A DNA stretch of 64,000 nucleotides, from contig NC_081355.1 in assembly GCF_030684315.1 (NCBI RefSeq), positions 15,614,761 through 15,678,760 on the forward strand. The letters are read 5' to 3'. A program made the position numbers and the translations under genes. Positions 24,122 to 60,315 of this stretch are shown here, one piece after another. This stretch comes from Stegostoma tigrinum (lineage: Eukaryota). The notes beneath the pieces were generated by a model. It was not told the DNA's origin, did no database searches, and was given only the letters and a program-made list of their open reading frames with translations. Numbering within the stretch: the stretch's first letter is position 1; every line of letters begins with the position of its first letter.

Positions 24122-24250
24122 TAATAAAATGTGAGGCTGGATGAACACAGCAGGCCCAGCAGCATCTCGGGAGCACAAAAGCTGACGTTTCGGGCCTAGA
24201 CCCTTCATCAGAGAGCTTGGATTCTCCAGCATCTGCAGTTCCCATTATCA
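24122..24250. mobile_element. Penelope-like mini-insertion (inverted/permuted terminal repeat) with 15-bp TSD
   Basis: CAGAGGATAGGTGGA at 24107-24121 and 24251-24265. The insert is antisense pLTR (near-identical to 28146-28237) followed by the sense tail cttggattctccagcatctgcagttcccattatc. Confidence 0.9.
24184..24211 (-). ncRNA. Minimal type I hammerhead ribozyme motif (PLE-associated), core intact
   Basis: Reverse complement CTGATGA-A-GGGTCTAGGCCC-GAAA-C-GTC: conserved CUGANGA and GAAA boxes, stem II, palindromic ACGT stem III, GUC triplet. Activity untested. Confidence 0.75.
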
Positions 24251-24726
24251 CAGAGGATAGGTGGAGAAGCCCAAAATTATGTCCAGGATTTACCGTACGA
24301 AAGAGAACGTGGGAATTACTGTGGGAAATTAACTTTATTCCTGGCCTGCGGTTGAGATGTCTCATGAAGTTGCATGATAGTTGCCTGTAATAAACATCTG
24401 GTAGATTCTTCATGCCGCTGTTTCCATGCCCAATTCTAAAGTAGTGCTGCATTAGGTAAAGCCACCCTATTGGCGATAAACTCATTTTATAGCATATGGG
24501 GCCATTTGTAAAAGTCTTCAATATTTTGGTAAATATTTGAAAAACTTTTTGAACGTTGATTGGACAGCAGCTTTAGCTGAGAGAGAATGCCTCTACTGTC
24601 GTGGGCAGAACTTTTGTACCCATGTTCAAAGTATTATTGTATGTGAGATGTGAATATTTTCCTCCTGTCTTGAATTTAAATAATTCAAGCAGCAAGCTTT
24701 TTTGAGAGTTTTAAAATCATAAATGG

Positions 24727-25668
24727 AAAAATATTTTCTGCTGAAATGTCTAGGCCTGAAACGTCAGCTTTCCTGCTCCTCTGATGCTGTTTGACCTGCT
24801 GTATTCATCCAGCTCTACACCTTGTTATCTCGGATTCTCCAGCATCTGCAGTTCCTGTTATCTCTGATACAATTTTAACCCCACTGCGAAGCCTCTGCTA
24901 AGGATGCCCAACCTGAAGAAGTTACCCTGCTCCCTCCGGACAAACCTCGGGGGATCTCTCTTCCCACTGCAACTCTCTCAGAATCTCTTCATCCTTGAAA
25001 CTGCTTGACCATGACCTGAACCAAACCAGATACTACAGCCACATCACTTTTCTTAGTACCTGCCTACAGAAGCAGGTGATCCCTAATGGACTACAGTCCA
25101 CATTCGAGCCTTTCCAATTTGGCCCCAACCGTAACAATATCTACATTCAGAACATTGAGACCTTTCAGAAGGGCTTCTCCCTGTGACTCCTGAAACACAC
25201 ACTCGCAACAATCCGCTGGCATCTCCGGACACTACAGTCAAGCCTACCCCAGCTCATCCTCCCTCTCCCAGATCTGCAAAGGATCTCTCCTGTTTTTTAT
25301 TCTTTGTGGGATCCACAACCTGAACACTCAATTCTACTCAGCTTTATTGGGCACCAGAAGCTGTGAGTACAGTAAACTTACTGGTGCCTGCCACCCAAAA
25401 CGGGATTCCTCCACCTCCCAAATCCCCAGCCATACCCAGGGCCTTCCCCACAATATACCCGTCACCATTGGCCATGAGGCCACTGTTGGAGAACCCACAG
25501 ATGACGCCACATCCGCCACTTCTGGGACAGTGAACGCTATCGCTGCTGAAGCCACCATCTAAAAAAAGATTTTCTGAGGAAGGGTCTAGGCCCGAAATAT
25601 CAGCTTTCTTGCTCCTAAGATGCAGCTTGGCCTGCTGTGTTCATCCAGCTCTACATCTTGTTATCTCA
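24727..25668 (+). mobile_element. Internally deleted Penelope-like element with direct terminal repeats
   Basis: Direct repeats of about 100 bp (24727-24830 and 25561-25668), each with a hammerhead motif, flank a frameshifted PLE N-terminal ORF (ATG 24904 MPNLKKLPCSLRTNL; TRYYSHITFLSTCLQKQVIPNGL). No RT or endonuclease. Confidence 0.8.
25574..25601 (+). ncRNA. Minimal hammerhead ribozyme motif, sense to the EXOC2 pre-mRNA
   Basis: CTGAGGA-A-GGGTCTAGGCCC-GAAA-T-ATC: core boxes intact, stem III palindrome ATAT, AUC triplet. Confidence 0.65.
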
Positions 25669-28205
25669 ATATATTGTTCCAGACTTGTTCCTTCGGCCTA
25701 TATTTGTAACACCTCACTCTGTACACACACACCACTGTTCACCCACACAAAAATTAAGTGCATGTGAAGAAAGAAAAAAAATAGAACAAAGAACTGTGGC
25801 TTCTGGAGATCTGAAACAAAGAAACAGAAATTGATGGAGAAACTCAGTAGCTTTGCAGCATCTGTAAAGAAACAACAGTTAACATTTTGAGTCCAGTGTT
25901 CTGAAGCAGGGTCATTGGTCATGAAACATCAACAATATAGTCCAAATGTCTCAGTATTTCTTTAATGCTATGCTTGGAGTTTGTTCAATAAGTTGCTTCT
26001 AGTTGGTGAAGGAATTATAGTTTCTCAATAACCCATGAGGCATTTTTTTGTATATTTGAATTTCCAGGAGTTTGGCTCTCAGCTGAACTTGAATTTGGAA
26101 AAGCCCTTTTCCCATTTTGAGGATGATGCTGTTTATTGTCATGGTTGCTTAGTTGATACAGCTGGTGTAATGGGTTTTCTTTTTGGAACCTCTGTGAACA
26201 GCCTTTTCTGTTATTTTTAAAATAGACAGAAAGGTGGCTTCCTCATCATGTGACTTAAACAAGTTCAAAACCCGTTTGCAAAACAAAGCCTGTCAGTTGA
26301 TTACACATCCTGTTTGTCATTGACACTTGGAAATTTATCCTATCTAGTTTGGATGAGGGGCCAGTATAGTATAATGAAAGGTTGTTGAGATGTATTTCAC
26401 AATTGTCTAACACACATTGAGTCTGAGGTGAAGTAGAAAGATGATTTGGCTGAAATGCTACACTATGTTGACAGTCCAACAGACAAAGGAATGTGTGAAT
26501 TTCTGGATGGCTGTGAATGCCCATATTTATTTAGTTATTTGCTGGAACCTCAGAATGGTCTGGAGCTCGGAACCCAAAGATCACCTGAATTACGGTGGCC
26601 ATATTTAATTATTTGTGTTCAAAATATAATCTGAGTGTCTGACATAACCAAAGAAGATTTGATGAATTCCTGATGGCTGATGACCAAAGGTGGTGTGTCG
26701 AGTTTGCAGTTCGCTGTATTGAGGATAGTGAATGTAATGGTACAGAGTACAGTTTCGAAAACTCTCCTTTTGATCAAAATATGTAGCTAAAACCTCTGCA
26801 GCTCTTCCTACAATGCACTAGTAAACTTGCATTATGTTTGTACATACAAACCCGGTGGCTTGTTTTGAGAGTGTCGGTGGTGGGCGTGAGAAATAGACAT
26901 TCCCAATGAGGTTTCTTTGTCTTAATTGTTTAATGTTCATAAGTTTGTCTATATATCTTTACTAAAAGATGTCTTGTTACTTAATTATGACAAAATTGGG
27001 TTGACTGTTCCTCCAGTTTTCTTTTGTGTTTTAGAAAAAGTAAAGCAATTATTCTGTTTTCAATTAATTTTTAACAAATAAATTACTTGTTGTTTCCCAT
27101 GATCAGTCTTAGGATAAATTTACTGAGTTGAGTGAGACTCTGCAGAAAGATTTTTTGCAGAGCCGCTTAGTGGCTTGGATTGGCAATTACATGACATTTA
27201 CCAGTAATTTAGGATGATACTGTAAATATTATAACCATGTGAAATTGTTGTGCAAGCCCTGGGAATATTTTTGAGATGCTATACACAACCATTATGTGTA
27301 GTATATTTTGTACAGAATCTCCTGTTGAGTTCTAATATAATACTAGATGTGTTTTAGCTGAAAAGATCATGTTCCAAGCATTGAACAGTACAGTCTCTGT
27401 GCAAATTATTATATAAAAACTAAATATAATTAAACCACTTTCATCTCTTCACCTCCCTCCTTTTATTGAATTGCATTCATAAAGGCTCAAGGTGTTAGAA
27501 AAGTAAGTGATTTCACACCCTTATTACTTAATAGCACGCAAAACCGCTTCAAAAATTTATAGTGCGTAAGAGATGTGCCAAGAATTGCATATTGCCGCAA
27601 ATAATGAGGCAATTTAAACAATTCCACCCTAACCTCTCAGGCATTCACTGTCTGTCTCCCCATGAGCTTCAGGAAAGTAATGAATTGGAGCCATAAATGT
27701 GAATAAATCTTCGTAAAATGATGATGAGTTGAATAGTCGGGGGCCCACTCACAAATGTGTGTTAAGCGGAACTTGGAGATAGCTGAGGAGGCCCCTATGG
27801 AACCCTATTACCTACAAACACATTCCATATTAAAATATATCAATCAAAACATAATGATTAAATGTGAAAATGTTTTCATTTTTCAATTTATTCATACCTT
27901 ACAACAGCCCGGCTTTAAAAGACACTGTGGAAATACTTGGTAATCTTTTTGCTGCCTTATGTGCTCACTTCACATGAGTATGTTACATTCCAGACTGTAT
28001 CACACTGTCCACTGTTGTTAATTTCTGGAGTATTTCTAAGGGCTTTATAGCTTCAGCTAGGGATGCAGGCAGGTGAGTGATCGTGCATTCATCAGATCTT
28101 TGGCATCATTTAAATTGAAGATGAACAGCATCTACATTTTGTCAGATAATAAAATGTGAGGCTGGATGAACACAGGCCAAGCAGCATCTCAGGAGCACAA
28201 AAGCT

Positions 28206-28233
28206 GACGTTTCGGGCCTAGACCCTTCATCAG
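28206..28233 (-). ncRNA. Minimal hammerhead ribozyme motif in the PLE terminal repeat, core intact
   Basis: Reverse complement CTGATGA-A-GGGTCTAGGCCC-GAAA-C-GTC, identical to 24184-24211. Confidence 0.78.
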
Positions 28234-28460
28234 AGAGGGGGATGGGGTGAGGGTTCTGGAATTAATAGGGAGAGAGGGGGAGGCGGACCGAAGATGGAGA
28301 GAAAAGAAGATAGGTGGAGAGAGTATAGGTGGGGAGGTAGGGAGGGGATAGGTCGGTCCAGGGAAGACGGACAGGTCAAGGAGGTGGGATGAGGTTAGTA
28401 GGTAGGAGATGGGGGTGTGGCTTGGGGTGGGAGGAATGGATGGGTGGGAGGAAGAACAGG

Positions 28461-29507
28461 TTAGGGAGGCAGAGACAGGTTGAACTGGTTTTGGGATGCA
28501 ATGGGTGGAGGGGAAGAGCTGGGCTGGTTGTGTGGTGCAGTGGGGGGAGGGGATGAACTGGGCTGGTTTAGGGATGCAGTAGGGGAAGGGGAGATTTTGA
28601 AACTGGTGAAGTCCACATTGATACCATATGGCTGCAGGGTTCCCAGGCGGAATATGAGTTGCTGTTCCTGCAACCTTCGGGTGGCATCATTGTGGCAGTG
28701 CAGGAGGCCCATGATGGACATGTCATCAAGAGAATGGGAGGGGGAGTGGAAATGGTTTGCGACTGGGAGGTGCAGTAGTTTGTTGCGAACTGAGCGGAGG
28801 TGTTCTGCAAAGCGGTCCCCAAGCCTCCGCTTGGTTTCCCCAATGTAGAGGAAGCCGCACCGGGTACAGTGGATGCAGTATACCACATTGGCAGATGTGC
28901 AGGTGAACCTCTGCTTGATGTGGAATGTCATCTTGGGGCCTGGGATGGGGGTGAGGGAGGAGGTGTGGGGACAAGTGTAGCATTTCCTGCGGTTGCAGGG
29001 GAAGGTGCCGGGTGTGGTGGGGTTGGAGGGCAGTGTGGAGCGAACAAGGGAGTCACGGAGAGAGTGGTCTCTCCGGAAAGCAGACAGGGGAGGGGATGGA
29101 AAAATGTCTTGGGTGGTGGGGTCGGATTGTAAATGGCGGAAGTGTCGGAGGATAATGCGTTGTATCCGGAGGTTGGTAGGGTGGTGTGTGAGAACGAGGG
29201 GGATCCTCTTGGGGCGGTTGTGGCGGGGGCGGGGTGTGAGGGATGTGTCGCGGGAAATGCGGGAGACGCGGTCAAGGGCATTCTCGATCACCGTGGGGGG
29301 AAAGTTGCGGTCCTTAAAGAACTTGGACATCTGGGATGTGCGGGAGTGGAATGTCTTATCGTGGGAGCAGATGCGGTGGAGGCGGAGGAATTGGGAATAG
29401 GGGATGGAATTTTTGCAGGAGGGTGGGTGGGAGGAGGTGTATTCTAGGTAGCTGTGGGAGTCGGTGGGCTTGAAATGGACATCAGTTACAAGCTGGTTGC
29501 CTGAGAT
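28461..29507 (-). CDS. Partial PLE polyprotein: RT thumb region plus GIY-YIG endonuclease (TE-encoded, no native start)
   Basis: ISGNQLVTDVHFKPTDSHSYLEYTSSHPPSCKNSIPYSQFLRLHRICS... then CNRRKCYTC, NVVYCIHCTRCGFLYIGETKRRLGDRFAEH, VANHF, RRLQEQQLIFRLGTLQPYGIN. The frame is open for 59 codons upstream of the track's Met at 29330. Confidence 0.9.
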   Translation of the reverse strand: MSGNQLVTDVHFKPTDSHSYLEYTSSHPPSCKNSIPYSQFLRLHRICSHDKTFHSRTSQMSKFFKDRNFPPTVIENALDRVSRISRDTSLTPRPRHNRPKRIPLVLTHHPTNLRIQRIILRHFRHLQSDPTTQDIFPSPPLSAFRRDHSLRDSLVRSTLPSNPTTPGTFPCNRRKCYTCPHTSSLTPIPGPKMTFHIKQRFTCTSANVVYCIHCTRCGFLYIGETKRRLGDRFAEHLRSVRNKLLHLPVANHFHSPSHSLDDMSIMGLLHCHNDATRRLQEQQLIFRLGTLQPYGINVDFTSFKISPSPTASLNQPSSSPPPTAPHNQPSSSPPPIASQNQFNLSLPP

Positions 29508-30119
29508 AGGGTTGTTCTCTTACCCGCTGATTGGCTTGATTTAACCTGAAGATTGGCTGCCATCTGTACGTGGTTTTTAAGTTTCCTGACATGTCTATTA
29601 TCTATCTGTTATTTAGCCATAATGTTGGGAGGCAGGAATGCCAGCTTGATTCTCTTCAGGCCAGCATTGTTGGGGTGTACAAGGTAATTTATTTGTCATG
29701 GTCTGTCTTCTGCTGATATGTTTTATCCACTATCCTGAGCCTTACCTCAAAAATGCTGACAGTCGTCCAAGTGATTTTGTTGATTGTATACAGAGTGGCT
29801 AATGTCTTGACTTTTAAAAGATATGTGTCTCCTTGGAGTTTCCTATCGCAAGAAGCGGCAGCTGTTCAATGCTATCCATCTTGGCACAGACAATACCCAG
29901 CTTTGCTTTCCACCAATACACTTTAAGCATTAAAAAGTAACCTGGTAAAGTAGAGAGTCCAATTTCAGGTGTTTAAAAATGTCACTTTCTCTATACTAGT
30001 TCAGGATATGGTTGAGATTATTTTGGAGCCAAGTGTGTGCTATTGCTATTCTGAATGCCAACCCATCAGTGTTTACTGCTCAGAAGACAATGCCATGCTT
30101 TGGTGTGAATGACTTTTAA

Positions 30120-30380
30120 TTTGGAGACCCAGATAACATTCTGGGAACCCGGATTCAAATCCCACCACAGCAGGTGGTGGGATTTGAATTCAATAAATGT
30201 CTGGAATTAAGAGTCTAGTGATTGATAGTGAACCAGATGGTTTTTCTAACTTTCTTTAGGTAAGGAAACTGCCATCCTTACCTGGGTCTGGCCTACATGT
30301 GACTCCAGACCCACAGCAATGTGCTTGACTATTAACTGCCCTCTAAGGATTAGGGATGGGCAAAAAATCTTGCCCTCCAC
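30120..30380 (+). mobile_element. tRNA-derived SINE, same family as 3148-3482
   Basis: B-box ggattcaaatccc; body aggaaactgccatccttacctgggtctggcctacatgtgactccagacccacagcaatgtg. Confidence 0.75.
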
Positions 30381-30597
30381 CACAAAGGGGGAATTTCAGG
30401 ACTAATGCTCAAAGAATTGGGTTTTCAGGAGCCTTTCAAGGGAGAAAGGAGTAGATGTGAGGGAAAAATGAAGACCAGGCAACTGAAGGCATGACTGCCA
30501 ATGGTGAAACAGTGAATATTGGGGTTGCTCAAAAGTCTAGAATTGGGGGCATGTGGATTTCTCGACTGGTTCTTGAGCAAAAGAGATGCAGAGGATT

Positions 30598-31900
30598 GAG
30601 GTCATAGAGTCGTACAGCACGGAAACAGACTCTTCGGTCCAACCAATCCATGTCAAACATAATCCCAAACTAATCCAGTCCTACCTGCCTGCTTCTGGCC
30701 CGTGTCCCTCCAAACTTTTCCTGTTCCTGTACCTATCCAAATAGCTTTCAAATATTGTATTGGTACCTACATCCACCAGTTCCTCCAGAAGTTCATTCCA
30801 CATGCGTATCACCCTCTGTGTAAAAACAAAAAAAATTGCCTCTTCTGTCTTTTTTAAATCTCTCCTCTCCTCTTAAAAATGTGTCCCCTGTCTTGAATTC
30901 CCCTATCCTAGAGAAAAGACAACTACCTCTAACTCTGTCTATACCTCTACCAGCTCACCTGTCAACCTCCTACATTCCAGCGGAAAAAAAAAGTCCCAGG
31001 CTATCCAGCTTTTATTTCTAAATCGAACCTTCCATTCCCAGCAACATTCTGCCAAGTCTCTTCTGAACCCTGTCCAGCTTAATGATGTCTTTTGTATTAT
31101 TGGGTGACCAGAACTGGACACAGTATTCTGGAAGAGGCCTCGGCGATGTCTGTACAACCTCCAACATGACCTCCCTAGTCCTTGACTCAAAGGACTGAGC
31201 AATAAAGGCAAGCGTGCCAGATGCCTTTTTTAACCACATGTCTATATGTGACACAAACTTCAAAGAATTATGTACCTTCAACCCCTAGGTCCCTCTGTTC
31301 TTCAACACTATCCAAGGCGCTACCATTAATTGCTGTTGTGAAACCAAAATGCAATACCTTGTATTAATCCAGATTGAACTCCATTTGCTATTTTTCAATC
31401 CATTGAGTCATTTGATCAAGATCATTTTGTAATCTTAGCCTTTTTCGCTTTCTCTTATGCCACCAAGTTTGGTGACATCTGTGAACTTACTAACCGTGCC
31501 TTCTATATTCTCACGTAAGTCATTTATATAAATGACAAACAAATGAGGACCCAGAACTGATCCCTGCAGAATCCTGCTGGTGACCGGCCTACAGTCTGAA
31601 AAGCAACCCTCCACTCCCACTCTGTCTCCTGTCATTAAGCCAATTATGTATCTCATTGGCATGCTCACCCTGAATCCCATGTTACCTAACTCTCTTAATT
31701 AGTCCACCATGTGGAATTTTGTCCAAGGCTTTACTGAAATCTAAATAAACAATGTCTACTGCTGTGCCATCATCAATCTTTTTGGTAACTTCCTTGAAAA
31801 ACTCAGTCAACTGTATGAGAAATCATTTTCCTCGCACAAAATCAAGCTGGCTATCCCTAATCAATTTCTGCCTCTCAGTGCCCATAAATCATATCTTCAA
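30598..31900 (-). mobile_element. CR1 LINE, 5'-truncated
   Basis: Minus ORFs VTSRILQGSVLGPHLFVIYINDL..VSKFTDVTKLGG and EYCVQFWSP..DIIKLDRVQKR. Confidence 0.92.
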
Positions 31901-31989
31901 AGGTTTTGAAAGCAACAGGAAGAGCAAATAGTAGGAACTGCTCTCCCTATTTATTTCAGAATCCCCCTTGCCTCCGCCATTCTGAGCCC

Positions 31990-32160
31990 AAGAGTATCAA
32001 GTGGACTTCGCAAGCTTCAAAATCTCCCTTCCCCCGACTCCATCCCAAAACCAGCCCAGCTCATCCCTGCCTTCCTAACCATTCCTCCCACCTTAAGCCC
32101 CACCTCCTTCTCCTACCCACTAACCTCATCACCCCTCCTTGACCTGTCTGCCCTCAACTC
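31990..32160 (+). mobile_element. Penelope-like 3' fragment
   Basis: gtggacttcgcaagcttcaaaatctcccttccccc...ccagcccagctc matches the reverse complement of about 28370-28620. Confidence 0.75.
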
Positions 32161-35100: not shown

Positions 35101-38002
35101 GGGTACCATCAGATCTTCAGTATCCTAAGTCACCATTTTTAAGCTTCAGGTAGATCACAGTTGAGTCCATTCCTATTCATCCAAATTTGTAAAGATTTCT
35201 TGCTAATCGGTGATTATTAATTGAAATGGAGACTTCAATAATTATCGAGGACGTACGTCAGAAAATCTGTATCTTGGGTATGATATTAAACTAAGGACTG
35301 TTTTGATTTTTGTAAAAATTTAATGGAATAACATGCAGATAAACAGTGTATTTTATCCTGCTGTCTGGCTAATATCTCTTATCAACTTGACTGACATAGA
35401 TTATCTGGCCATTTACATAAATACAGGTTGTAGAATCCTGCTGTGTATGTATTGGGTGCTATGTTTTCTCCATTTAAACAAGAATATTAAACATTAAAAA
35501 TCCTTCTTTGGCTATAAAGAGCTTCTGGGCTGCTGAACCTGTGAAGAGTACCATTGAAGGCAAATTTCTTTTTAGCTCGTAATTGATCCAGCCCTTCTCC
35601 CTAGATGTTAAATGATTGACACTCAGACTTACCTTTCTTGGAAAATATTAGCTTATGTGCAGTAGAAAAGTGATTTTAGTTTTTAATTTTGTGAATGTTA
35701 TTAAACAGCAAGTTTTTTTGTTATCTAGACTACAGGACATTTTTAAAAAAATACAAATTTCATTCATGGCTCTTCAAGTTTATCCTGTGACTTTTTTTAA
35801 TCAACTGTATTTTGATTAATTTGTATGGATGTTTGCTGTTTTATTCAGAAATTTCTCTATTACAGTTATCTCCCCGCTCTAACAGTATAAGCGATTTGTG
35901 ATGCTGTTGAAGCCTTTGGTTAAATTTTAGGTCACTCAAAAGCATATGTTCCTGCATGTGTTGGTTTATAAACACTGTTTAACATGAGTGCACAGAGGAA
36001 AATAATAGATGCACATTCTGTGGCAAGTTGTGAAATTGTTTGATGTTGTCTGAGCTGTGGGGTGGTTCTGTTCAATGTTAGACTTTGTGTTACAAACCAA
36101 AGTTTGAAATTGTCTCTGGTGAAAGAAGACATCATATACTATGGTTCCAAACTGAACGCTCTAGAGATTTGCAGTAATATTTTTCTGTACACTTCATTAA
36201 TCATTCACCTCCTATTTTTCAAAGTTGACTTCTCTTGTACAGGTAGTGACTTTTTAACCCAGCAGCCTTGGAATTGGGCTTTTGCCGGCCCAGGGCGTTT
36301 GCCAAACTTGGGAGGTCAAGTATATCAATGCACAAACCTTTTAAAAATAATGACCTCACCTTGACTTGTGTCAGTTACATGCCTAATGAATGTTTTTGGT
36401 GTCTTACTGGAAAATAAGTCTTGAAGGTATCCTAACTCGACGAAGTGGGATATAAAATATTGTGAGTAAGGGTTGAAACTGACCTACTACAGCAAAATCC
36501 GGAAGTACTGTGGTTGCCAGACCAAAGAACGTTGATTAGGAAGGTACAAACTAAACTCTGGTTTTACTTGAGTAACGGTTAAGAATCTCAAATTATAAAA
36601 TTGTGTAGAGTGTGCATTTTTATAGCTAACCTTTAGAAGCTATGCAAGGGTCATGGGGTGAATGAAAATAGTTTAGTCATAGAATTATATGGTGTCAAGG
36701 TTTCTTTTTGCATTCTATTGCTTTTGATGAAACTGCTGCTTATTATGAAGTTCAGTCTATGTTAATGAAACATTTGTCCAAAAAGTTTAATTTACAAGGA
36801 ACAAATATGGAATACCCATATTTTAATGTGTCTTCAACTTGGCTAAGAATGTTGCTACTGATGTGACTCTTGTATACCTCATTAGTTCATAAGTTCGGCA
36901 CAAGCTAGTGTATGTGATTTAAAGATTCTTAAAGGTCATATTTTTACAACATTTTTTTGATGTACAGCAAATCCCTATGTAAGGGGTTTAGCCACTCAGC
37001 TGTCATTTGGTTGATTGCTGAATACGGTTCAGGTCAGCTAACTGGGTATGTGAAATATTGTGTAATGTAGAGTAAATAAAGTGTAGTATATAGATTTAAT
37101 TTGAAATGATCAGTTTGTGGCAAAAAAAGTCACTTGAGAAAAATAGCCATCCAACAATCGTAAAAGTTCCTTTTAAAATACTAAGCTCAATTTTCATTGT
37201 ACTCTTGCTCAAGATAGACAGAAAGAATTGCATCTGCTGTTGCATATTAAATGTACCCCAAGTTAGACATTTTGTATTAAAGGCTGAACTTGAGTGAGAC
37301 AAACTTTCCAAAATCAACCGCTCCAAATATGCGGCTTACTGATGACCCAGATGGCTGTTGGAATGTTGATATGCAAAATATTAAATAGGATGAAGGATGT
37401 TTATTTTGGATTTAAAATTTAAGTGTCGTCTTTGCACAATTCGTAAGTTTGTAATTTTAATTTAGCTCAACATTTTATTGATGGACTGGATGTACAATGG
37501 AATGCTTGACATCGTCAAGGCATTCAGTCTGGAAAGCATTAAAGAGTGCTAAATCGAGTATTTTTTCAAAATCAAATCTAATGTGTTCAATTTTTTGGTG
37601 CAGTATGAATTTGTCAGATTCTTACGTACAAAAAAAAACCTTGTTTCCACTTAATGTGCCATAGTAGTACTTCTGCATTTTTTTATTTTGATTGTATTGT
37701 TTAACATCTTGGCTGAGAAATCATTTAAGCTTATGTTTGAAGCATGGGTATGCACTAAGAAGAAGATTACTTTTTTAGGTTGGTCCTTAATACATCCAGA
37801 TGTTCTAGCAATATAAAATATTGTTGCAATACCCATTTTACCAGAAGTCATCGAACAATGGAAAGCCTGAAGTTATATGATTAATGTGTTTTATTACTAC
37901 TTTGAGATGTAAAGAATGGATGGTAATGGAAATTGCAATATAAAACATTAATTCAAGGGAGAGATTCTGCAAATGTCCTGAACAAATGAGTGCAAAGCCA
38001 GT

Positions 38003-38081
38003 TAACAAGGTGTGGAGCTGGATGAACATAACAGGCCAAGCAGCATCATAAGAGCAGGAAAGCTCACCTTTCGGGCCTAGA
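38003..38081 (-). mobile_element. PLE terminal-repeat fragment with half hammerhead
   Basis: gagctggatgaacataacaggccaagcagcatc..gcaggaaagctcacctttcgggcctag. Confidence 0.8.
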
Positions 38082-38149
38082 AATGCTCCATTTGCATTAC
38101 TATTTTAAATCCTGGTTTGCATTTTAGTTGACAATTGGAGATAAGTTAC

Positions 38150-45000: not shown

Positions 45001-45566
45001 CTGATTGTTTTGGGAGCTGCATTGTGCAAACGTCCTCACAATTGTCTGTTAAGAGCAAAATTCACGAACAGACTGTCTGTCTGTATAATCTAATACTATT
45101 GCCACCTGCTGTATTGTCATTTGTACCGCATTGCTCATACCCATCTATATGCAGAAATTAGGCAAAAGTCCTTAAGAGCAATTGCAAATGTCATTTATGT
45201 ATACTACATTCTTATGTCCTTTGTCACGGTTTTTTTGATGACTTACAGTAAAGTAACTGCTCAGTTTTGTATCATCGTAATGATTCTGCAGCTTGGAGCA
45301 AATGAAGATACCAAGTTGTATTACAGTTCAAAAATCTATTTTATTAACTTTGCTATTTGGAAAAATAGTTCGCACCTTACTACTAATTTTGTTCCTAATA
45401 TGTTAATTAAGGGAAACAAAATCTTGATTGCAATACTTTTTTTCTTGTTTTTTTGTGTGTTCTTAAAATGAATCCATGGTAACATTCTTAAGTTTATTTA
45501 TCTTTTCCTAAAAAATGTTCATCCAACTAAATTTGAGGGACAGTTGAAAGATATTGCTTTCATAGA

Positions 45567-45790
45567 ATAACTAGATGTAGAACTGGATGAACACAGCAGG
45601 CCAAGCAGCATCAGAGGAGCAGGAAAGCTGACGTTTCGGGTCTAGACCTTTTTTCAGAAATTCTGAAGAAGGGTCTATACCCGAAAAGTCAGCTTTCCTG
45701 CTCCTCTGATGCTTCTTGGCCTGCTGTGTTCTTCCAGCTCGACGCCTTGTTATCTCAGATTCTCCAGCATCTGAGTTCCTACTGTCTCTG
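45567..45790. mobile_element. Palindromic PLE terminal-repeat insertion with two back-to-back hammerhead motifs
   Basis: Inverted arms of about 85 bp centred near 45660. Minus motif 45630-45657 (CTGAAAA, G8 lost); plus motif 45663-45690 (CTGAAGA...GAAA-A-GTC). Degenerate TSD tgctttcatagaa / tgccttcattgaa. Confidence 0.88.
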
Positions 45791-46226: not shown

Positions 46227-46227
<1 letters not shown>

Positions 46228-49139: not shown

Positions 49140-49625
49140 TATGAAATGTTAACCCTGTTGCATTCTCAGCAAATGCTGCCAGACCTGCTGAGTTTCCTCC
49201 AAAATGTTCTGTTTTTATTTGGATTTCTAGCATTTGCAGTATTTTGCATTTATTAAAGTTGAATTCAACAATTTTAGATCATCATCTCGGCTTTCTGTTT
49301 TTCTTTTTCTTGCTTATTTTAGATGGTAGCTTTGGTAATGAGTCTGTATAGTACTATTTAACACCATTTCTAGATTTACTTGATAGAGTACCACCCACTT
49401 TTGTCGTGCATCATTGTCTCACTTGCGACTGAATTTCTGTTGCTGTTTATAGACCTTTCCATTTGTTCTTTTTCTGCATTTCCCACTTTGAATTTTTTTT
49501 TAAAACCTGTTACATTGACATTTTCCTCTCTAACAAGAGTTCGTTGACCCGAAATGTTAGCATTTTTTTCTCTCCTCAAAAGCTTCCTGACAACGTGAGT
49601 ATCCGTTATTTTCTGCTTTTATCAT
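49140..49625 (+). mobile_element. Two old PLE terminal-repeat remnants
   Basis: gaaatgttaac...atgctgccagacctgctgagttt...gatttctagcatttgcagtattttg and gacccgaaatgttagc. Confidence 0.55.
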
Positions 49626-50059: not shown

Positions 50060-51665
50060 AGTAAGAATAGACCATATAGCCCATTGAAACTGATTTTAGT
50101 ATTTAATATGATCATGGCTGATCTTCTACCTCAGCTCTGTTTTGCTGCCACTCGTACATCCCTTGATGCAGGGACACATTAAAATCTGTGTTATCCTTAA
50201 GTATATTTAGGAATGAAACATTCCCCACCTCTTGGGTTGGAAACTCCGAAGACTTACAACTCTCTGCTCAGCTAAGCCCTAAATGCAGTTTCCTTATTTT
50301 GCAAAGTATGCCCCCATTTTCAAGATTCTCAAGCAAGAAACAACAATCGCTTAGTGTCTATCCAGTAAAGACCCTTCAGAATCTTGTATGGTTCAATGAG
50401 ATTGTCTCTGTCTCTTCTTCCAAGTGCGAAGGAATGTAATCCAGTTTACTCGGTCTCTCATCAGGCAGCCCATATGTACTGAGGCCTAATCTAGTGATTG
50501 TAATTGCTTTCAATGCAGCATTATCATTCTTTACATATGGAGACCAAAACTGCTCATGTATTTCAAATGAAGTCACACCAAGTCCCTGTACAACTGCAGC
50601 AGGATTTTGTTTCTGCTTGTTCTCCAATCATTTTGCAATACAGGCTAACATTCATTTGTATTTCTAATTGCTTGATGTGCCTGCTTTCTATAGTATGAAA
50701 TCCAACACTGTACACAACACTAGGTCTAATTCTAGTTCGATTTAGACAAAACATTGCTACTTGGGTTTTGTATTCAGAGCTTCCTCAAATAAAAGCTAGT
50801 ATGTTTCTAGTTGAATGCAAAATCTGCACTGTTGTCATGGAGTAACTGATTTTCGGGAATGTACATTGGGAGAATTGTTACACTATTCATTAGGAAGTAA
50901 TAGAGACCTGCCAAAGTAATATCGGCATGTCTCATGGCTTATTATCTCCACAAGTGAGCCTCACTGAAATATTTGCGTGAGCCAGTTGTCTCTTAGGGTT
51001 CTATCTGTGTACATGTTTGTATGTGAGTATTATTTTGTACTGATTTATGAAACTGAACAAATTATTAAATTGGTTGGAGCAGAATGCATAAATTATCAAT
51101 TAACTAAGGGGCAAGAATTGGCCATTAAACTATTTGTTTGCTCTGCTGTTTAATAAGAACAACACTGATCTGATTGTACCCTGAAACCCATGTTCCTGCC
51201 TACCCTGAAAGGCTTTCATCCCCTTACTTACCTAAAATCTATTCACCTCTGTCCAACGATTTTAAAAGGTTAAGATATTCAAAGACTCTGCTTAAACCAC
51301 TTTTTCTGGAAGAGGTCCAAAGACATTCAGTCTTCCGTGAGAAACAATTTCGCCTCATCTCTGTTTTAAATTTGTGATTGCTTATTTTTTTAAGCAGTGA
51401 ACTCCAATTCTAGATTTTCCTATGAGGAAATATTTATCAACGTCCAATTTGTGGAAGACCCCTCAGAATTTTGTTTCAATCGTCACTTCTTACTCTTACA
51501 TTTGCTGGGGTTTACAAGTCTAGTCTGTCCAAACTTTCCTCCTAAGACAACCTGCTCATTCAAGATCTTAATCTAGTAAACCTGCTTCTAACACATTTTT
51601 ATGTTCTTCCTGAAATAAGGTGACCAATACTGTGCACAGTTCTCTAGATGTGGTGCTGCCAGTAC
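50060..51665 (-). mobile_element. Two CR1 3' fragments (about 50060-50690 and 51105-51665)
   Basis: ggagaccaaaactgctcatgtatttc and ggtgaccaatactgtgcacagttctctag (antisense EYCVQFWSP) plus CR1 tails. Confidence 0.75.
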
Positions 51666-51801
51666 CCTCATGATCGTTTGCAAATATTTTGATATTTTGT
51701 TCGTACGGCATATTTGTGTAAATTAGGAGTTTTGTTCAGAGAATTAGTTATATTTTACATGATATATTGTGAAATGTACTTTGGGAATTTTTAAGTTTCG
51801 G

Positions 51802-51892
51802 ATCTCTCGCTCTCGCGCTTTCGCCCTCGCGCGTGCGCGCTCTCTACCCTCGCTCGCGCGCACTCTCTGACACGTGCACGCCCTCGTGCGCT
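51802..51892. repeat. CpG-rich degenerate (CT)/(CG) microsatellite
   Basis: ctctcgctctcgcgctttcgccctcgcgcgtgcgcgctctct...cgcgcgcact...cacgtgcacgccctcgtgcgc. Confidence 0.8.
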
Positions 51893-54614
51893 TTTTTGAT
51901 CTCCACCTCTGGATCTTGGTAGCATCCCTTGTGCCTTGAAGGCATATTGCTGTGACAATGAAAAGTTTAATTTTATGCTCAGTTTTTATACTGTATTAAA
52001 ACTGTGTCCTGCTACATGCTCATTAAATTTCTGTAAACTCTCTTCCATCATCTTACAATTAGAATGTTTGTATGATTGACAGTGTAAATTTCTTAACTAG
52101 TTGAAACCCACTGGTATCTGTAGTTATATATCAGTTGATATTGCATTTTACTATAGAAAACTACTCAATGCTTCAGGTTCTGGTCCATGTTTAGCAATAG
52201 GAATGTGTTCCATGACTCGCATCAGTCAGAAAACAATATCAGCGGAACGGTTAAAGCTGCAAAATTTGCTGAGCTTCGCAGGCTGTCCTGAAGTGACCTC
52301 TGCTTCCAGGCTATTAACATTCTCACATGGAGGTAGGAGCTGAAGCCATTGTCAACACTTGAGACTGAAATGATTTATCATGAAGAAACTAGCGTTTCAT
52401 TGTAATAAATTTGGCTGTTCTAGCCTAGTGCACCTAAGCTATATTGAAAAACCTTTGTAGATTTCACTTTTCTTGCTCAGCTAGGGCTAAGCATAAAATC
52501 TACTGTAGTACAATTAGTTATTTAGATGCATATTTGTTATAACTGCATCATTTTGACTTTGATTTAGCATTGCTTTGTGGCTGGATGAATGTTGTTTGCC
52601 ATCATGTCAGTTTGTTAATTACAAGTATATTTTCTTGATACGAGTAGGGTAATGTGAGCTGTGCAAGTGAATTTTAGTTATCTCGCATGTTTTCATGATG
52701 CAGTATTAGATTTACCCATTTTTTACTTTAGCTTACAAGTTAACAAGTCTAGCAACAGATGATCTATTTTTATTGATTGCCAGTAGGTATAATGGAGGCA
52801 TTAGGGTTTGGATTTACCTGTTCATTCAAAAATCTGACTGAGTAGGAACCAGAACTGTGTATTCAAAAGGAGTTTTTGTTCTCAACAAAATATCATTGTT
52901 TTTAATTATATGACAATTTTTGAAATATTCAGGTGAAATATGTTGATGCCTAGATTAATTTATGGGAACCAAATATTTTGGATCAAGTTATCATTATATA
53001 TAATTGAACAACTGCATCCTTAACTATTTGGGCATTTTTCATAATGCGTGGATTGGAGTTGCATTTATTGGAAATAAAATTGTTTCACTAAAGTAAGATT
53101 TTGACCTCAGGAGGCTCCAAAACATTCTACAAGCAATTAAGTGGTTTGAAGTCACAAACGTAAGTTGACACCTAAGGCTAATTCCAGTAGATTCCAGGTT
53201 GACCCACTAGAATATGACAGCCGGTGCTGATACATTCTTCAGGATTGACTAAGAATCTACTGAAATCGGTATCACTGCATTCCGCATTCCTTCCCAGGAT
53301 GCATTCTGAGAGATAGGCAGGTACGTGATTCTTTGCCCACTAGTATCCCTTCAATGAATGGTCACTGCCATGCTGTGACATGCTGTAGCAACAGTGGTGA
53401 AAAGAGCGAGGAGAAAAACACTACTGTTTCTTCGGTCTGTGCTATCTTTTAATGCAGGTAGCTGGTTAGTGCATGTGTGAAGCTGCACTGTCAGTGTTTT
53501 ACTTGTGGTAACATCAGCTGCCAGTCTTCCTTTTAAAGCAGTTGTTGGTATCTCTTCAAGAAAAGAAAATATGATTTCTTCTAATTAAAACATTTCGAAG
53601 AGAACAGGTAGGCGCTGAAAGCCAGCCTGATTGCATCCCTTCCCGGAAAGGAACTTCTCAAGTACTCAATGATCTCTTGAAAATTTTGTTGTTGTACTTT
53701 CCCAATTTCTTCAATGTGCAGTATTTTGTAATATTTATGCATAAGTGCTTGGGTTCTGCATTGAACGTGAAACAAGATCTGCACAGTGCCTTCCAGGCTA
53801 ATTTGCAGCCATGCATGGGATTAGTGTAAGAATAACATTGCAACTGAGAACCCCTAGATGTCAACCAGCTTGTTGATGTTAAAACTGAAACCAGGAGATT
53901 GCAATTGAATGGCTGTTTGGCTTTACTTTAAGATTGTGTCTCCTCCTTGTGATCACAGTTATCTAATATAGGCATTTGACAATTTGGAGCAATTTTCCCA
54001 TAGTTTGAGTTTGTTGAGAAGCTGCTGTTTAGATATGATACTTTTGTATACTTTTTGTTAATTGGCTAATGTGACAGATGACAATGCTTTACTGATCCTG
54101 AAGCAGTTTTGTAGAATGGAGGAACAGAGGCGGTGGTTTTGAAGTGGTAGAGTATTCATTTCTGATGTCATGCAACCTTTTGAAGGTAACCCTCTTGGTT
54201 CAGTTCTTGGGCTGATTTAGGTGGACTCCTGGCCTTTTACTGAGAAGGCGTTGGTTCATTCTCCTGTAATCATTCTGTTTCTCTCTGTCTATGGCTCCAT
54301 AATCCACACCAGCCCCTGTTGCTGCAAAGTGTTGTATCCATAGAATCTGAGGTGCCAGATAAACCTTTTGTTTCTGCTTCTAGAAGTCTAGTTAGTACTG
54401 TAACATTGAGAATGAGGTTTCATGTGACACCAAAATATTATATATGAAACATAAAGAGAATAGTTTTAAAGGGGACCCTGACTTTAAATACCAAACAGAA
54501 AAACTAGCTTCACAGCAGTTTTGGGTGATGTCACTTCTGACAACATCATCTAGAATATGCCCAGCCAGAGTTGGTTATCATAACAGGAATGAATTTCAAC
54601 ACAGCAGTGTGCCT

Positions 54615-55640
54615 TTTGTGGCAATGCAATAAAGTCAAGATAATCTGCTTTATGTTGGTTAAGAATAAATATTGGCCAGGGCACTAAGACAATACACTTC
54701 TTGCATCGTGTTGTGGGATATTTTACAATGACTTTAGAAAGCCAGACTCTGCTGTTACGTGATTTACACATGAAACAACCCATGACTGTGCAGCACTCCT
54801 TCAGTAGTGCATTCAAACGTCAGCTGAAATTATGTGCTCAAGTTTCTACAGTAGTACTGGACTGCTAACCTTTTGACATAAGGGAGAATTCAATTTTGTG
54901 AAGATATGTCATAGGAAGTGAACATGTTGGTTTTGCCAACATTCCTTTTGTGTTAAATATCCTATACCCACTACAATTAAAAATGAGGCGCATCAAGTTG
55001 AGACTGATCGATTGATCATAGTCCATGACATCATAACACTGGATCTGTATTACTGTGTTGTAATTCTCTAGTGCTGACCCAATATCTCCTCTGTTGCTTC
55101 ATAAATTATGGTTTTGGTCAAAATTTTCTTTCTGCAGCTAAACTATTTGAGTAAGCAATCTTATTCAGACTAAACAACATAACTGATGATTTCTGAAAAT
55201 GAAGTGCCACTGAGCGAGTTGGAAAGTTCAAAGTTGAAACCTGTATATGACTAACAGTGCTAGCTTGGTTCATTGATGATACAACTTTTCTCCATGTCAC
55301 TTACTTGTGGGTTTAGCCTCATTCCTGAAATCCAAACCCACAATCTAGCTTGATATTCCCCTGCTAGACTGGCGGTATGCAGTGTGGTCAGTGGAGGTTA
55401 AATTACCTGACCATCTTAAATACCCCAGGCACTATTTCAAGAATAGCAGAGATTTCACCTGGCACCCTGGTCAACAGTCGTCTTTCAAACGGTGTCATCA
55501 GGTTATTGATCTAGTTGTTGTTTGTGGGGCCTTGTAGTATAGAAATTAGCTGCTGCATTTACCAATGTGAAGCAGTGTCTGCACTTAAAAAGTAATGATT
55601 TGCTGTAAAACATTTCAGGATGATTTAAGGGCTTATTGGT
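54615..55640. mobile_element. Two diverged Deu-type SINEs in opposite orientation (about 54615-54890 minus, 55300-55640 plus)
   Basis: aaatattggccagggcac..gtgcagcactccttcagtagtgca and ggcactatttcaagaatagcagag...ctggcaccctggtcaaca. Confidence 0.55.
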
Positions 55641-57955
55641 CTATAGGTGAACAGTCTGAGATGATGAATGGGAACCTGAAGCAGGAGCTGAATTGCATTG
55701 CCATCCTCCTTTGGTACTTTGGAAGCAGAATTGGTAGAGTTTCATGATATCGCTGCCAAAAATATCTCTACTGGACTTGGAGTCACAGTTTTCATCTTGT
55801 AACGTACAGCACATCATGCTCTATGTTTTGACACGTAAACTTAATTTTATCTGTGGGGAATTCTAATTTATGGGGTCTTTGCTTCAAAAGTGGTGAAACT
55901 TTGGTCACTAAATATTATGCTATGACATGTTGCCTGAATTGATAAAGCAATGTTTTATAATATATTTTGAAATTTGAAACCTGTTAATAAGCAATGCTCA
56001 TAAATTTTTCTTGTTACTGTAAGGTAGGTAGCAATTTGTAGAAATCAAACATTCTGTTTGATGATAAAAATACCTGGAATGTAAGACTTTTATTGCAGTG
56101 CTTTTATGATGTAAAAGCTGTTGAGTATTTCTTGTAAATTAGAAAGCAGTTGTAGAATGAAATACTTTGTCAATTTATTCAAATGTTATAAATGTCCAGT
56201 ATTCAGTATTACAGAATCAGCATTTTGGTTGACAAGATGTTGCTAACATAATGCTAGAAGTATTTCTGTCCTGAATACACAGATGTAATTTATTCTAGTG
56301 ATGTTAACCAAAACCTCAGTGTTGTATTACTTGTGCGTTCAACAAGCTCTCCTTTTACACACAGTTAGTCTTTCCAGTAATGTGTGATGTGGAGGAGTTG
56401 CAAGTGTTAGAATCATTCATTCATTTATCATTTGGTTATCGGAGATGGGGGAAGGGGTAGTGGTGTGGGTGGGTGGTAGCAGCAAATGGTGAAAGGCCGT
56501 GACCAGTATGTTTCCCCAGCAAGGGATGGATTTAAACCCCCCTCCACCAGACCTAATGATATAAGCCTAGCACCATTGCTTACAACCCCCACCTTCTCAC
56601 CACCCTATTAAACTGACAGCTCCTAGACTTTGCGTGCAAGTGAGTTCAGCTGGCGCTGTGTGGTCTGGGTGTGTGGTCTCCAGGCTGAGAGGCTGCTAAC
56701 AGGGTGGATGAGAAAGACCTCGTCTGTTTACTTTAATTTTCTTGGACGCAGGAACTCTGCCCAGCATTTCTGGTGTGCTGGTTCCATAAGCAGTGGCCAG
56801 TCCATCACAGCTGCTGAACAGTCTGAAATGCTGGACTTGTGCTAATCACCCTTGCAGCTCGTAGATCAATTTCAACATGTCACGGACAAGCTAATCCAGG
56901 TTGTAAATGAAATTGAGGTGTTATGTTCCAAGCAGGAATTTAATATTTGCCCCACTGTTTCCAGAACTGCAGTATAGTTAATTTAGAACAAAAAAATACA
57001 TTTGGAGGGCATTTCTAAGTTTTCAACATTGGTTTAATAAGATTGTATGTATTGATTTTTGTTTTGTTAAGAGAACATCAGGGTTAATCTCTCAGCATCG
57101 AAAAATTATTTTCCTTTATTTCATTTATGTCTGTGGAAATTAAAAGCAAACATTTTTAAGAAGCCAGGATGAGAAGCTACCAGTTGGCCTGTTTAAAATC
57201 ATTATTTTAATTCAGGTTTCAAAAGTAATTTAGAACTTTAAAATACTTTTCCTTCCCCATGCCAAAATAATTTTTGCATTGATAAGTTTCAAAATTATTT
57301 CTGACAAGCCTGTATAAATGTTCAAAAGCTAAAATCACAAGCTTAACTTTAGTAGTAACTTACTGTGTTGATTTTTCAAAGAAGGAAGTTATGAAGCTTT
57401 GTGGGAATTTGCCATCTTTTAATTTGATGGAAGCATTTTGGTGAAATTGTGGAAACCCCATGTATAGTATAAAGCATGTTCTTTGAAGGGCAAAGGCAAC
57501 TATCTTTTGCTGCATAGCAGTTCAGCATTGATGCAATGGAAGAACACTCAAATACAGCAGGCATTACGGAGGGGCATTTCTCTGTTTCAAAGTGTGTGTA
57601 TCAGTGTTGTCTGTAATGTAGTAAAAGTTCAGATGCTTGAGTAATGCATGTAATTTTCAACTTTGATTAATTTAAAACAGATCATGACATAGCAGTGTTT
57701 TAGTGAAGCTGAATAAAGGCACAACAATCAAAATATTTGTGCATTGTCCCATTGCGTATTTATTAAACCATTTACATTCAGTAAATTGAATTCAGGATTT
57801 ATAATTTTATGTACTTAGTGCTTATCATTTATTCAATTGGTTGAATAATATTTAAAACTTCTTGTACCTCCTCTTTCCCCATATATATATATATATGCAC
57901 ACACATACTCTCTTACAAAATACACTCAACTGTTGTCATAATGTTGTATTTACAG

Positions 57956-57994
57956 ACTGCTGTACCTTGAGAAATATTTAACTGAAGAGTGATC
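57956..57994 (+). other. EXOC2: 5' UTR part of EXOC2 exon 2
   Basis: Acceptor tgttgtatttacag| ends at 57955, 39 nt upstream of the ATG; matches the vertebrate layout with the ATG in exon 2. Confidence 0.75.
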
Positions 57995-58112
57995 ATGTCC
58001 CGAGCACGGCAACCCCCACTGGTAACTGGGATCTCTCCAAATGAGGGGTATCCCTGGACAAAAGTTACAATCAGAGGAGAAAATCTGGGAACAGGATCCG
58101 TGGATCTTACAG
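57995..58112 (+). CDS. EXOC2: EXOC2 (Sec5, exocyst component 2) first coding exon, coding part
   Basis: Translates as [40 protein letters not shown], recognisably the vertebrate EXOC2 N-terminus ([34 protein letters not shown]). 118 coding nt, phase-1 donor ACAG|gtaagt at 58113. Ral-contact residues T11 and R27 are present. Confidence 0.97.
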
Positions 58113-59170
58113 GTAAGTGTCTAATTTTGTTCAAGGGAAGCCATTTTATATAAAAGCATCTAAAATTACCTTTTAATGTAAAGTTGGTGGCATTGAAAAG
58201 TTTATATTCAAGCACATTGTAATGCTTTGTGTATACACCACTTTTTTAATACGCTTTTCTTCAGTCGCCTCCAACACAGCGCACGTGGGTGTATCTTTGC
58301 AGGGATCAAAGCTGGGAATTAACATTCAGGGGCATTTGACCTTTTAGAAGTATAGGAGGGAAGGAAATGTTGGTGGGGTAGCACTGTTAATAAGAAGTGA
58401 AACGAGGACACTTGAGAGACAATTAATGCTTGGATGATGTGGAGTCCGATGGCGTGGGGGTAAAAAGTAGTGGCTGAATGAAGACATTGGTAAGAGTCGT
58501 GTATAGATTCCTAAGCAATAGCCACACTGTAGGAAAAGCTATAAATTTAATAAATGACCTCAGAGTAAAATCTCTCCTCGGAAGAGAGAAGTCAAAATAA
58601 ACATAAGCCGCTTAGAAAATGAAGATAGTTACAGGAACAAGGAAAAGCAGAGGAGTTAAACAGATATTTTGCATAATTGTTTATAGTTGAAGATATTTTG
58701 ACCGTGCCATTAATACGAAAGAGTACTGGGGAGGAATTCAGTATCATTACTAAAGAAGTAATGGCTGTGGTGACCTGCATCCTAGCATGGTGGGGACATT
58801 GGTTGTAGTTTTTCAAAAATCTTTGGATTCTGGAGAAGTACCAGAGGATGAGCAAACTGCCAATGTGACACTTACTCAAAAAGTGAGTTATTGTGTAAGT
58901 CATTTAGCTTAATATCCATTGTTGGAAAAATGTTAGAATTGATTATTCATGGACTAACAACAACACATTTGGGAAGCAATAATCCAGCCAAGCAGTGTCA
59001 TAACTTTGTGAAAGGGATATTGTTTCTGATTAATTTTTTCGAGTTTTTCAATGATGTCTCAACCAGTGTGGATAGAGGGGTAACAACTGATGTGTTGTAT
59101 TTGGAGGTAGTATATTAGCATGGATAAAGAATTAACTCATGCGCAGGAAACTGAGTGAGGGTAAAGGATG

Positions 59171-59770
59171 TATGAATGATGACTTATTGTCACTTATACT
59201 TAAAATGAACAACACAGTAAAATACAGTGGAAAAACTAACTGTTGCCACAATTTGGTGCCTTCCGAATACTTCAGGAATAAAAAGACAACGCTGAAGTCT
59301 GTCTTCGTTCCACCACCTCTACCCATGAATCCTGAGCTCTGAGCTGGTGACCAATGACACCTGGGTTGCCATCTATACTGGACCCACCAACGTCTGAGTT
59401 GCCACCCTTCAGGAGCCATCTCTTCATTGCTGGGCCAACCCACTGATGGGCAACCAATGCCAGATCCTGTGCTGGACCCATCTTTATCCTGTAACCAGAA
59501 GTCCCTGGCTCTGCTGCCACTGCATCTTTTACAATGCCTGGGGTCCCCACTCTGGGTCAACCACAGCCAGGAATCACTGGGTTCACCGCCAGGTGAGGCT
59601 GCTGCCTTGCCAAGAGCCCCCTCTGGCTAATCCCGTCTGCAATGTCGCCCTGTCTGCCACCGAAGATGAGTAAGCAGAAGAAAAGAAAAAAGAAGAAGAA
59701 AGGGTAAGGAAAGAAAGGAGGAAGCGACGTCTGTGGCGGAGTGGCATTTTGCCAGTGTCACCTTCTTGGA
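59171..59770 (-). mobile_element. Non-autonomous retroelement (LINE-type tail) nested in CR1
   Basis: GC-rich body; reverse complement ends gtgacaataagtcatcattcat and begins ccaagaaggtg. Family not identified. Confidence 0.5.
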
Positions 59771-60224
59771 TAAGGTCTTTGTTAGGTTGGGGACCTTTTT
59801 AACAAGTGTGGTTCTACAGGGATCAATGCTGGGACTGCAATGAAATTGTTTACAATAACATATTAGTAACTTGAAAGTGAATGTTTTGTAGCCAAATTTG
59901 CAGATTGTGCAAAATAGGTAGACAGGCAAGTTTTGAGAGATGCTGGAGAAAGCTGCAGCTCAAAGGGACTTGTGCGTGAAATACAGACAGCTAGCATTAA
60001 TTAGGAAGGCTAATGGGATGTACTCCTTTACCGTTAAGGAGATTGGAGTATAAGGGTAGGGAAGTCGTTTGCAACTGTGCAGGCTACTGGTGAGACCACC
60101 TCTGCAGTACTGAGTAGTTTTGATCCCCTTTCAAAAGGAGAGATATTATTTCAGAGCTCAGTGAAGTTTCAATGGGATCATTCCTCATATGGAGGGATTG
60201 TCTTGGGAGCAAAGGTTGAACATG

Positions 60225-60315
60225 CAGTCCTGAAGAGAGGGTAATACCCTAAAAATTGACGGCTCATTTTCTCCAGATGCTGCTGGGCTAGTTGTGTTCT
60301 TCCAGCCTTCTGGCC
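60225..60315 (+). mobile_element. PLE terminal-repeat fragment with mutated hammerhead
   Basis: CTGAAGA-ga-GGGTAATACCC-taaa (GAAA box mutated) then ctccagatgctgctgggctagttgtgttcttccagcc. Confidence 0.65.

Follow-up and report, generated by a model that had tools for sequence, protein, structure and literature searches.

Minimal type I hammerhead ribozymes are carried by the Penelope-like elements (PLEs) of metazoans, where they lie in the pseudo-long terminal repeats (pLTRs) and occur mostly as solo copies from truncated elements, with some pairs on opposite strands (PMC4209133; Lunse et al., RNA Biol 14:1499, as cited in PMC6765202). The traits recurring in this class, as far as they are set out in PMC4209133, are a nucleotide that separates position 9 from 10.1, a G10.1-C11.1 pair, a palindromic 15.2-16.2 and short helices I; cleavage was low and was seen in dimers and trimers only. 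The present analysis concerns seven motifs and a half copy of this kind in a 64,000-nucleotide stretch of the Stegostoma tigrinum genome (contig NC_081355.1, positions 15,614,761 to 15,678,760; the whole stretch is termed the window), located in introns 1 and 2 of the gene EXOC2. The favoured reading, held with a probability of roughly 0.9, is that a highly abundant Penelope-like retroelement carries them in its terminal repeat as minimal type I hammerheads, and that its 5'-truncated copies probably sit in the EXOC2 introns as neutral passengers.

Other type I hammerheads have been described in comparable settings. The Poseidon element PAc of Anolis carolinensis has a pLTR hammerhead that, in the account available, was cleaved only with protein; reverse transcription has two starts, with 3' end points ~34 nt apart (the tail), and uncut RNA is the main template (Frangieh 2024, PMC11167929). 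Non-LTR retrozymes are built on type I hammerheads from PLE pLTRs, number up to 120,000 in axolotl according to a section heading, and are reported in one chondrichthyan (PMC7229834; Li et al. 2026 preprint 10.64898/2026.07.22.740005). Finally, domesticated type I hammerheads are described in host-gene introns of amniotes (RECK and others; PMC6155905).

In the shark window, all seven motifs and the half copy were confirmed at the positions where an earlier model-made annotation (the sequence-only reading) had placed them, its minus-strand coordinates being the low ends of 28-nt motifs with C3 at 24211, 28233 and 45657. The insertions that carry them are listed below.

24121..24215, minus strand: short-tail pLTR arm of an inverted twin, starting 4 nt before C3, with a perfect minimal hammerhead at 24184-24211.
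24216..24250, plus strand: long-tail arm (~34 nt) of the same twin, with a 14-bp target-site duplication at 24107-24120 / 24251-24264.
24734..24866, plus strand: older long-tail pLTR stub with a degenerate hammerhead at 24738-24765 (CUGCUGA in place of the core, stem II broken).
25570..25668, plus strand: older short-tail pLTR stub with a hammerhead at 25574-25601 (core intact, AUAU stem III).
28140..28460, minus strand: 3' untranslated end and pLTR of a Penelope-like fragment, with a perfect minimal hammerhead at 28206-28233.
28461..29507, minus strand: 5'-truncated PLE reading frame with reverse transcriptase (RT) thumb, CX4CxxC linker and GIY-YIG endonuclease.
37999..38081, minus strand: half copy, broken off within stem II and without CUGANGA.
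45567..45658, minus strand: short-tail arm of an inverted twin, with a hammerhead at 45630-45657 whose core is mutated to CUGAAAA.
45661..45790, plus strand: long-tail arm of the same twin, with a hammerhead at 45663-45690 and non-palindromic AAGU.
60230..60311, plus strand: old, related pLTR stub in EXOC2 intron 2, with stem II GGGUAAUACCC and G12 lost (UAAA instead of GAAA).

The core CUGANGA/GAAA/UH, in type I order, was intact in four of the seven copies (24211, 25574, 28233 and 45663). Core, stem II and palindromic stem III (ACGU) were all intact in 24211(-) and 28233(-), where CUGAUGA is followed by an extra A, a GGGU/GCCC stem II closed by CUAG, GAAA and CGUC. Rather than 3 bp with a 6-nt loop, stem II has 4 bp (GGGU/GCCC or GGGU/ACCC) and a loop of 4 nt. 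At 25574(+), core and stem II were intact and the palindrome was AUAU (AUAUC), making this the sole sense copy in the window that retains both core and palindrome; the idea that AUAU is a compensatory subfamily trait found no support, as this was the sole such copy among 138 descriptor matches. At 45663(+), stem III reads AAGUC. The extra A, said in the sequence-only reading to be single in all copies, fails at 60230(+), which has two bases before stem II. Also present, at 25788-25893(-), 49143-49240(+) and 7041-7073(-), were decayed remnants of a second pLTR family, which lack the CUGANGA part and are absent from that reading.

By core, extra base, palindromic stem III and pLTR location, the window motifs appear to belong to the minimal PLE class, with which they also share the G10.1-C11.1 pair, the lack of a real helix III and the mixture of mostly solo copies and opposite-strand pairs. 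They differ from the Schistosoma families, in which helix II has 7-8 bp and helix I 4-5 bp, whereas the main family here has a 4-bp stem II and a 2-bp stem I, and they are more numerous, with at least 94,491 copies against the 4,000-9,000 reported for coelacanth and Xenopus. The Schistosoma helix lengths are not universal, and a D. virilis variant likewise has a 2-bp helix I (PMC4209133). The motifs had been proposed to form a lineage-specific variant; this does not hold, because the extra nucleotide, the short stem I and the palindromic stem III were already general PLE traits in 2014 (PMC4209133), and the main family is somewhat particular in its short stem II and 2-bp stem I only. The stem I of about 2 bp given in the same proposal is correct for the main family, and its view of the dimer as the expected active form agrees with the dimeric cleavage of published PLE motifs.

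The window copies differ from retrozymes in being solo or inverted, with no head-to-tail array within the window, so that no unit-length circles would be released. Elsewhere in the genome, at L095:4323-4925 (G000:C22:10.0 Mb), the intact motif occurs three times head-to-tail with a 301-nt period, a retrozyme-like array from the same element. Domesticated intronic hammerheads are single-copy, ultraconserved and canonical. The window motifs, by contrast, are repeat copies in neutral decay, the best of them antisense, and at the family level neither core conservation above neutral, nor canonical stems, nor a preference for sense orientation was found.

The probability that the motifs are chance matches or artefacts is negligible. 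The loose pattern by itself was near chance, with 11 matches against 5.8 expected and 4 of 100 shuffles reaching 11, and an Rfam search returned no hammerhead family match at E<=5; Rfam matches to miRNA precursors at 45577-45743 stem from the hairpin of the inverted twin. The counts nevertheless refute this explanation. A core-plus-stem descriptor matched 138 times in 1.494 Mb but 3 times in a Markov control, an exact 30-mer had 94,491 genomic matches against 0 for the reversed control, and exact copies of a second and a third family with different stems numbered 1,916 and 7,312, again with controls at 0. Spaced samples totalling 420 kb contained 109 arms (one per 3.9 kb), and the 274 kb that span EXOC2 contained 35 (one per 7.8 kb); EXOC2 is therefore not enriched. 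Intact copies are estimated at ~190,000 by extrapolation from 25 in 420 kb.

The motif at 28233 lies ~230 nt beyond the stop of a 352-codon open frame, in which a GIY-YIG match (E=0.001, under the Pfam curated cut-off) and a CX4CxxC linker (CNRRKCYTC at residue 175) were recognised. Homologues with RT and GIY-YIG domains were found; most of 63 longer ones carry an RT domain, the one of highest identity (65%) being labelled Chiloscyllium. Where loci were selected by the motif, 27 of 30 contained the frame. It is one frame with RT and C-terminal GIY-YIG endonuclease, as in endonuclease-bearing (EN+) PLEs, of which the window holds the 3' half only. A zinc-finger-like CX2-5CxxC linker is described as a mark of Neptune/Nematis PLEs (Craig 2021, PMC8557442); Poseidon elements such as PAc are without the CX4CxxC linker, whereas the present element has it. 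The third family (L189-L192; extra U, 6-bp stem II, 7,312 exact copies) adjoins a different GIY-YIG type.

Most insertions were inverted twins, with target duplications mostly of 11-18 bp. The window contains two, at 24121-24250 and 45567-45790; the arms of the latter form a hairpin of ~80 bp, with a possible decayed target duplication at 45556 and 45790 (10/12). One long and one short tail were paired in 80 of 82 listed twins (two rows being duplicates), and inverted, 5'-truncated copies with a 30-40 bp tail at one end correspond to the inverted, tailed architecture known for PLEs (Craig 2021, PMC8557442). The pairing of tails also fits the two internal reverse-transcription starts described for PAc (PMC11167929). 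From the RT and GIY-YIG frame, the linker and the inverted tailed copies, the element is probably an EN+ Penelope-like element of Neptune/Nematis type. The proposal that minimal type I hammerheads sit on Penelope-like terminal repeats within EXOC2 introns is thus upheld, the motif lying beside a PLE frame and in pLTR stubs.

The structure of the motif was compared across families. One extra base before stem II was present in 131 of the 138 descriptor matches, as A in three (sub)families and as U in a fourth. Helix I and helix II measure 2 and 4 bp in the main family, ~4 and 5 bp and 3 and 6 bp in the other two, and the respective stem II sequences are GGGU/GCCC, GGGUC/GACCC and GUUACC/GGUGAC. 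Stem I pairing was not required by the scan and was counted per family in place of a covariance model, since support drawn from tens of thousands of identical copies would be circular. In this order of families, pair 2.1-1.1 is U-A, U-A and A-U (paired in 69/72, 15/19 and 11/13 copies) and pair 2.2-1.2 is C-G, U-A and C-G (69/72, 11/19 and 13/13). CGUC followed GAAA in 52 of 72 young copies, the other forms being mostly CpG decay, and CG after GAAA was the ancestral-looking form in all families. In the second family (L183-L188), a pyrimidine tract and CAG-ATG lie after the cut site and resemble a 3' splice site. PLEs are known to retain introns.

The ends of the insertions were mapped with positions counted from C3 = 0, so that the 3' cleavage product begins at +28. 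Among 118 young copies, 47 extended at least 198 nt upstream, 41 had their 5' end at -7..+8 and one at +27..+29. Starts following two non-matching bases numbered 7,354 genome-wide at -4, compared with 100 at the control position -12. The same clustering was seen by eye among 37 copies of the second family, whose natural upstream sequence is TCAGTT, with A at -4, presumably an initiator-like motif. In the few copies of the third family examined, no 5' ends clustered at the motif. A G directly preceded -4 in 81 of the first 100 listed copies; of 40 fetched loci, 12 were explained by the other arm and 2 by target duplication, and the G was retained in 20 of the remaining 26. This G was not accepted as proof of a cap, being ambiguous: copying of the C at -4 by fold-back gives G too. 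The concentration of ends at -4 suggests that the element transcript likely starts four bases before CUGAUGA.

A second class of ends lies at the scissile bond, with 3,376 starts at +28 against 1,078 at +38. Within the first 100 listed +28 starts, 40 pair up as 20 inverted junctions that have AGCT (+28..+31) at their centre, in 97.5 Mb; the same 97.5 Mb holds two ACGT-centred junctions and one GGCC-centred junction, with genome totals of 31 and 21. By extrapolation there are ~675 AGCT-centred junctions genome-wide, making them ~20-30x commoner than the two control palindromes. Fold-back from an end at exactly +28 fits 10 more of the first 100 listed starts and two of the 82 sample twins. The 1.5 Mb sample showed no cleavage-site peak (1/118 young copies at +27..+29), the fetched loci contained no AGCT-centred junction with perfect 8-nt arms, and the signal appears only in the genome-wide counts.

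This excess of inverted junctions at the scissile bond may record cleavage in vivo. The following points count against such a reading. Among the starts at the cut site, the non-palindromic ones (38 of the first 100 listed, ~1,280 by extrapolation) hardly exceed the control at +38 (1,078). A stall at +30, where the inactive hairpin has its foot, would yield the same junction if the ends were joined blunt. One junction at a stem II palindrome was present in the sample (L178), and the controls counted were ACGT and GGCC, not stem II palindromes. Secondary amplification is a further possible source of the AGCT junctions, the counts having been made without flanks. It is put forward only tentatively, at somewhat below even odds, that the stubs are fossil RNA ends, most being run-off from a capped transcript starting at -4 and a small percentage coming from GUC/A-cut RNA joined via AGCT. 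For PAc, no reads with ends at the cut site were obtained (PMC11167929), whereas in the present genome insertion ends coincide with -4 and possibly with the scissile bond.

Under the favoured reading, selection would act on the RNA of active elements, in which a pair of motifs would be joined through ACGU and cut after GUC, probably aided by an element protein. Starting at -4, the transcript would have the hammerhead as its 5'-most feature. Primed at the two tail sites of the 5' repeat, reverse transcription would run off at the 5' end to give stubs of 100-130 bp in which only a 2-bp stem I is left, and priming on the 3' repeat would give longer fragments, such as 28140-29507. Most copies would derive from uncut RNA, and a small fraction of the templates may have been cut.

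The element could instead retain the motif in some capacity that does not involve cleavage, for instance because it acts as a downstream promoter element or as a protein-binding signal at the RNA 5' end, with catalysis vestigial. The position of the motif directly after the putative start site and the origin of most copies from uncut RNA suit this alternative, as do two results for the anole element, where ribozyme mutants left insertion in vitro unchanged and RNA-seq yielded no reads with ends at the cut site (PMC11167929), and the description of Naiad elements that thrive without canonical motifs (PMC8557442). It is nevertheless considered improbable. Stems I and II differ in sequence between families and yet pair, and stem III retains its central CG, all of which points to RNA structure; the junction excess lies at the scissile bond; and the anole motif does cleave with protein, with C3/G8 rescue (PMC11167929).

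The decay of inserted copies was compared between regions in the 118 young copies, columns polymorphic above 15% being excluded. Differing positions numbered 16/920 in the core (non-CpG), 54/2,997 upstream and 108/6,698 downstream (Fisher p=1.0 and 0.78), the downstream rate being biased low because the young copies were chosen by downstream identity. No compensation accompanies the decay of the CpGs at G12 and in the palindrome. Preferential core conservation among genomic copies, whose absence the sequence-only reading had named among the outcomes that would refute it, was not found; the cores decay neutrally after insertion. Selection is visible between families only, as paired stems with changed bases and a retained core and stem III CG. 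Since the core is neutral within copies and pairing is kept between families, the motif appears to be maintained in active elements and to be neutral once inserted.

The host gene was identified as EXOC2/Sec5 on the plus strand, two exons matching solved Sec5 structures (E=8e-32 and 8e-19), with more Sec5 matches downstream of the window exons on the same strand. Its features are as follows.

7486..7531, plus strand: probable 3' portion of the non-coding exon 1 of EXOC2, within a CpG island, with a donor placed near 7532 (one contig, RNA status guessed).
57956..58112, plus strand: EXOC2 first coding exon, ATG at 57995 (Sec5 E=8e-19).
63648..63824, plus strand: EXOC2 second coding exon, matched stretch (Sec5 E=8e-32).

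In one contig, from a run guessed to be RNA and with few differences from the window, the acceptor at 57956 is joined to sequence matching 7486-7509 (24/24); three other runs compared gave nothing. On the basis of this single contig, six motifs and the half copy likely lie in a 5'-UTR (untranslated region) intron 1 of ~50 kb (at 24-46 kb), and 60230 lies in intron 2. A second Sec5-family match at G000:C212:138810-139022, on a small contig apart from EXOC2, is a paralogue or an assembly duplicate. A 290-codon frame without Pfam match is present in the window at 60554-61426(-). It presumably represents the 3' end of a CR1-type LINE (long interspersed nuclear element) reverse transcriptase, which it resembles.

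As EXOC2 is on the plus strand, the perfect copies 24211(-) and 28233(-) are antisense to it. Strand was compared in EXOC2 and 13 myosin genes (~1.07 Mb), where 115 arms were sense and 115 antisense; arms outside short twins were likewise balanced at 60 and 60, and intact arms in the same 14 genes numbered 16 sense and 23 antisense (p=0.34).

In folding predictions, the stem I pairing probability was 0.00 in all six main-family copies, and the unaided fold was an inactive hairpin in which the core CUGAUG pairs with CGUCAG. The constrained active dimer was predicted at -5.5 to -9.4 kcal/mol, compared with -38.0 kcal/mol for an inactive duplex. Stem II with its loop (GGGUCUAGGCCC or GGGUCUAGACCC; 28206-28233) is nearly self-complementary, and a long inactive duplex is predicted between two copies. 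The copy at 45663 was buried within a predicted hairpin of -138 kcal/mol.

These data bear on the possibility that EXOC2 is affected because some of the intronic copies, acting as dimers in cis or in trans, cleave its pre-mRNA or an antisense RNA. The copies do sit inside the EXOC2 transcription unit; the perfect 24211 and 28233, both on the minus strand and separated by 4,022 nt, might pair with each other in a hypothetical antisense transcript; and the ~190,000 intact copies would be abundant trans partners. The suggestion of several self-cleavage modules in the pre-mRNA is weakened in that the sense strand offers only 25574 with core and palindrome, whose AUAU is mismatched to ACGU and has no partner in the window. 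Published PLE motifs, as far as described, cleave poorly as dimers (PMC4209133) or only with the element protein (PMC11167929), core conservation was not seen, and stem I is 2 bp. Given also the lack of strand bias, the stem I probability of 0.00, the dominance of the predicted inactive fold and the protein requirement of the anole motif, cleavage of EXOC2 RNA would be unlikely, and an effect on the host gene is regarded as very improbable.

The interpretation of the motifs as hammerheads of active elements that become neutral passengers must be set against several considerations that weigh on the other side. The self-cleavage activity of the main family would follow from that of its relatives, the transcript start is read solely from insertion ends, and no full-length element was found among nine 10-kb loci. 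The downstream bias affects the decay comparison, and the strand test covers 39 intact copies, with a non-significant antisense lean, in EXOC2 and the myosin genes only. A single exapted copy would not show in family averages. Finally, nearest-neighbour folding leaves out tertiary contacts and co-transcriptional folding.

The motif itself is an already known feature of PLEs, and the pattern of insertion ends is possibly the new part. A literature search, mostly of open-access texts without supplements, found no report of shark PLE hammerheads or of insertion ends at the motif, and the function of hammerheads in endonuclease-bearing PLEs is called unclear in the available account of Craig 2021 (PMC8557442). 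For the host, the locus indicates that a vertebrate gene can hold many hammerhead look-alikes in its introns without visible cost. For the elements, ~10^5 young copies make template ends readable at single-base resolution, and both the start site and cleavage in vivo can thus be tested on sequence alone. If the account of the stubs as fossil RNA ends is true, it would provide genomic evidence of germ-line cleavage by minimal PLE hammerheads during retrotransposition.

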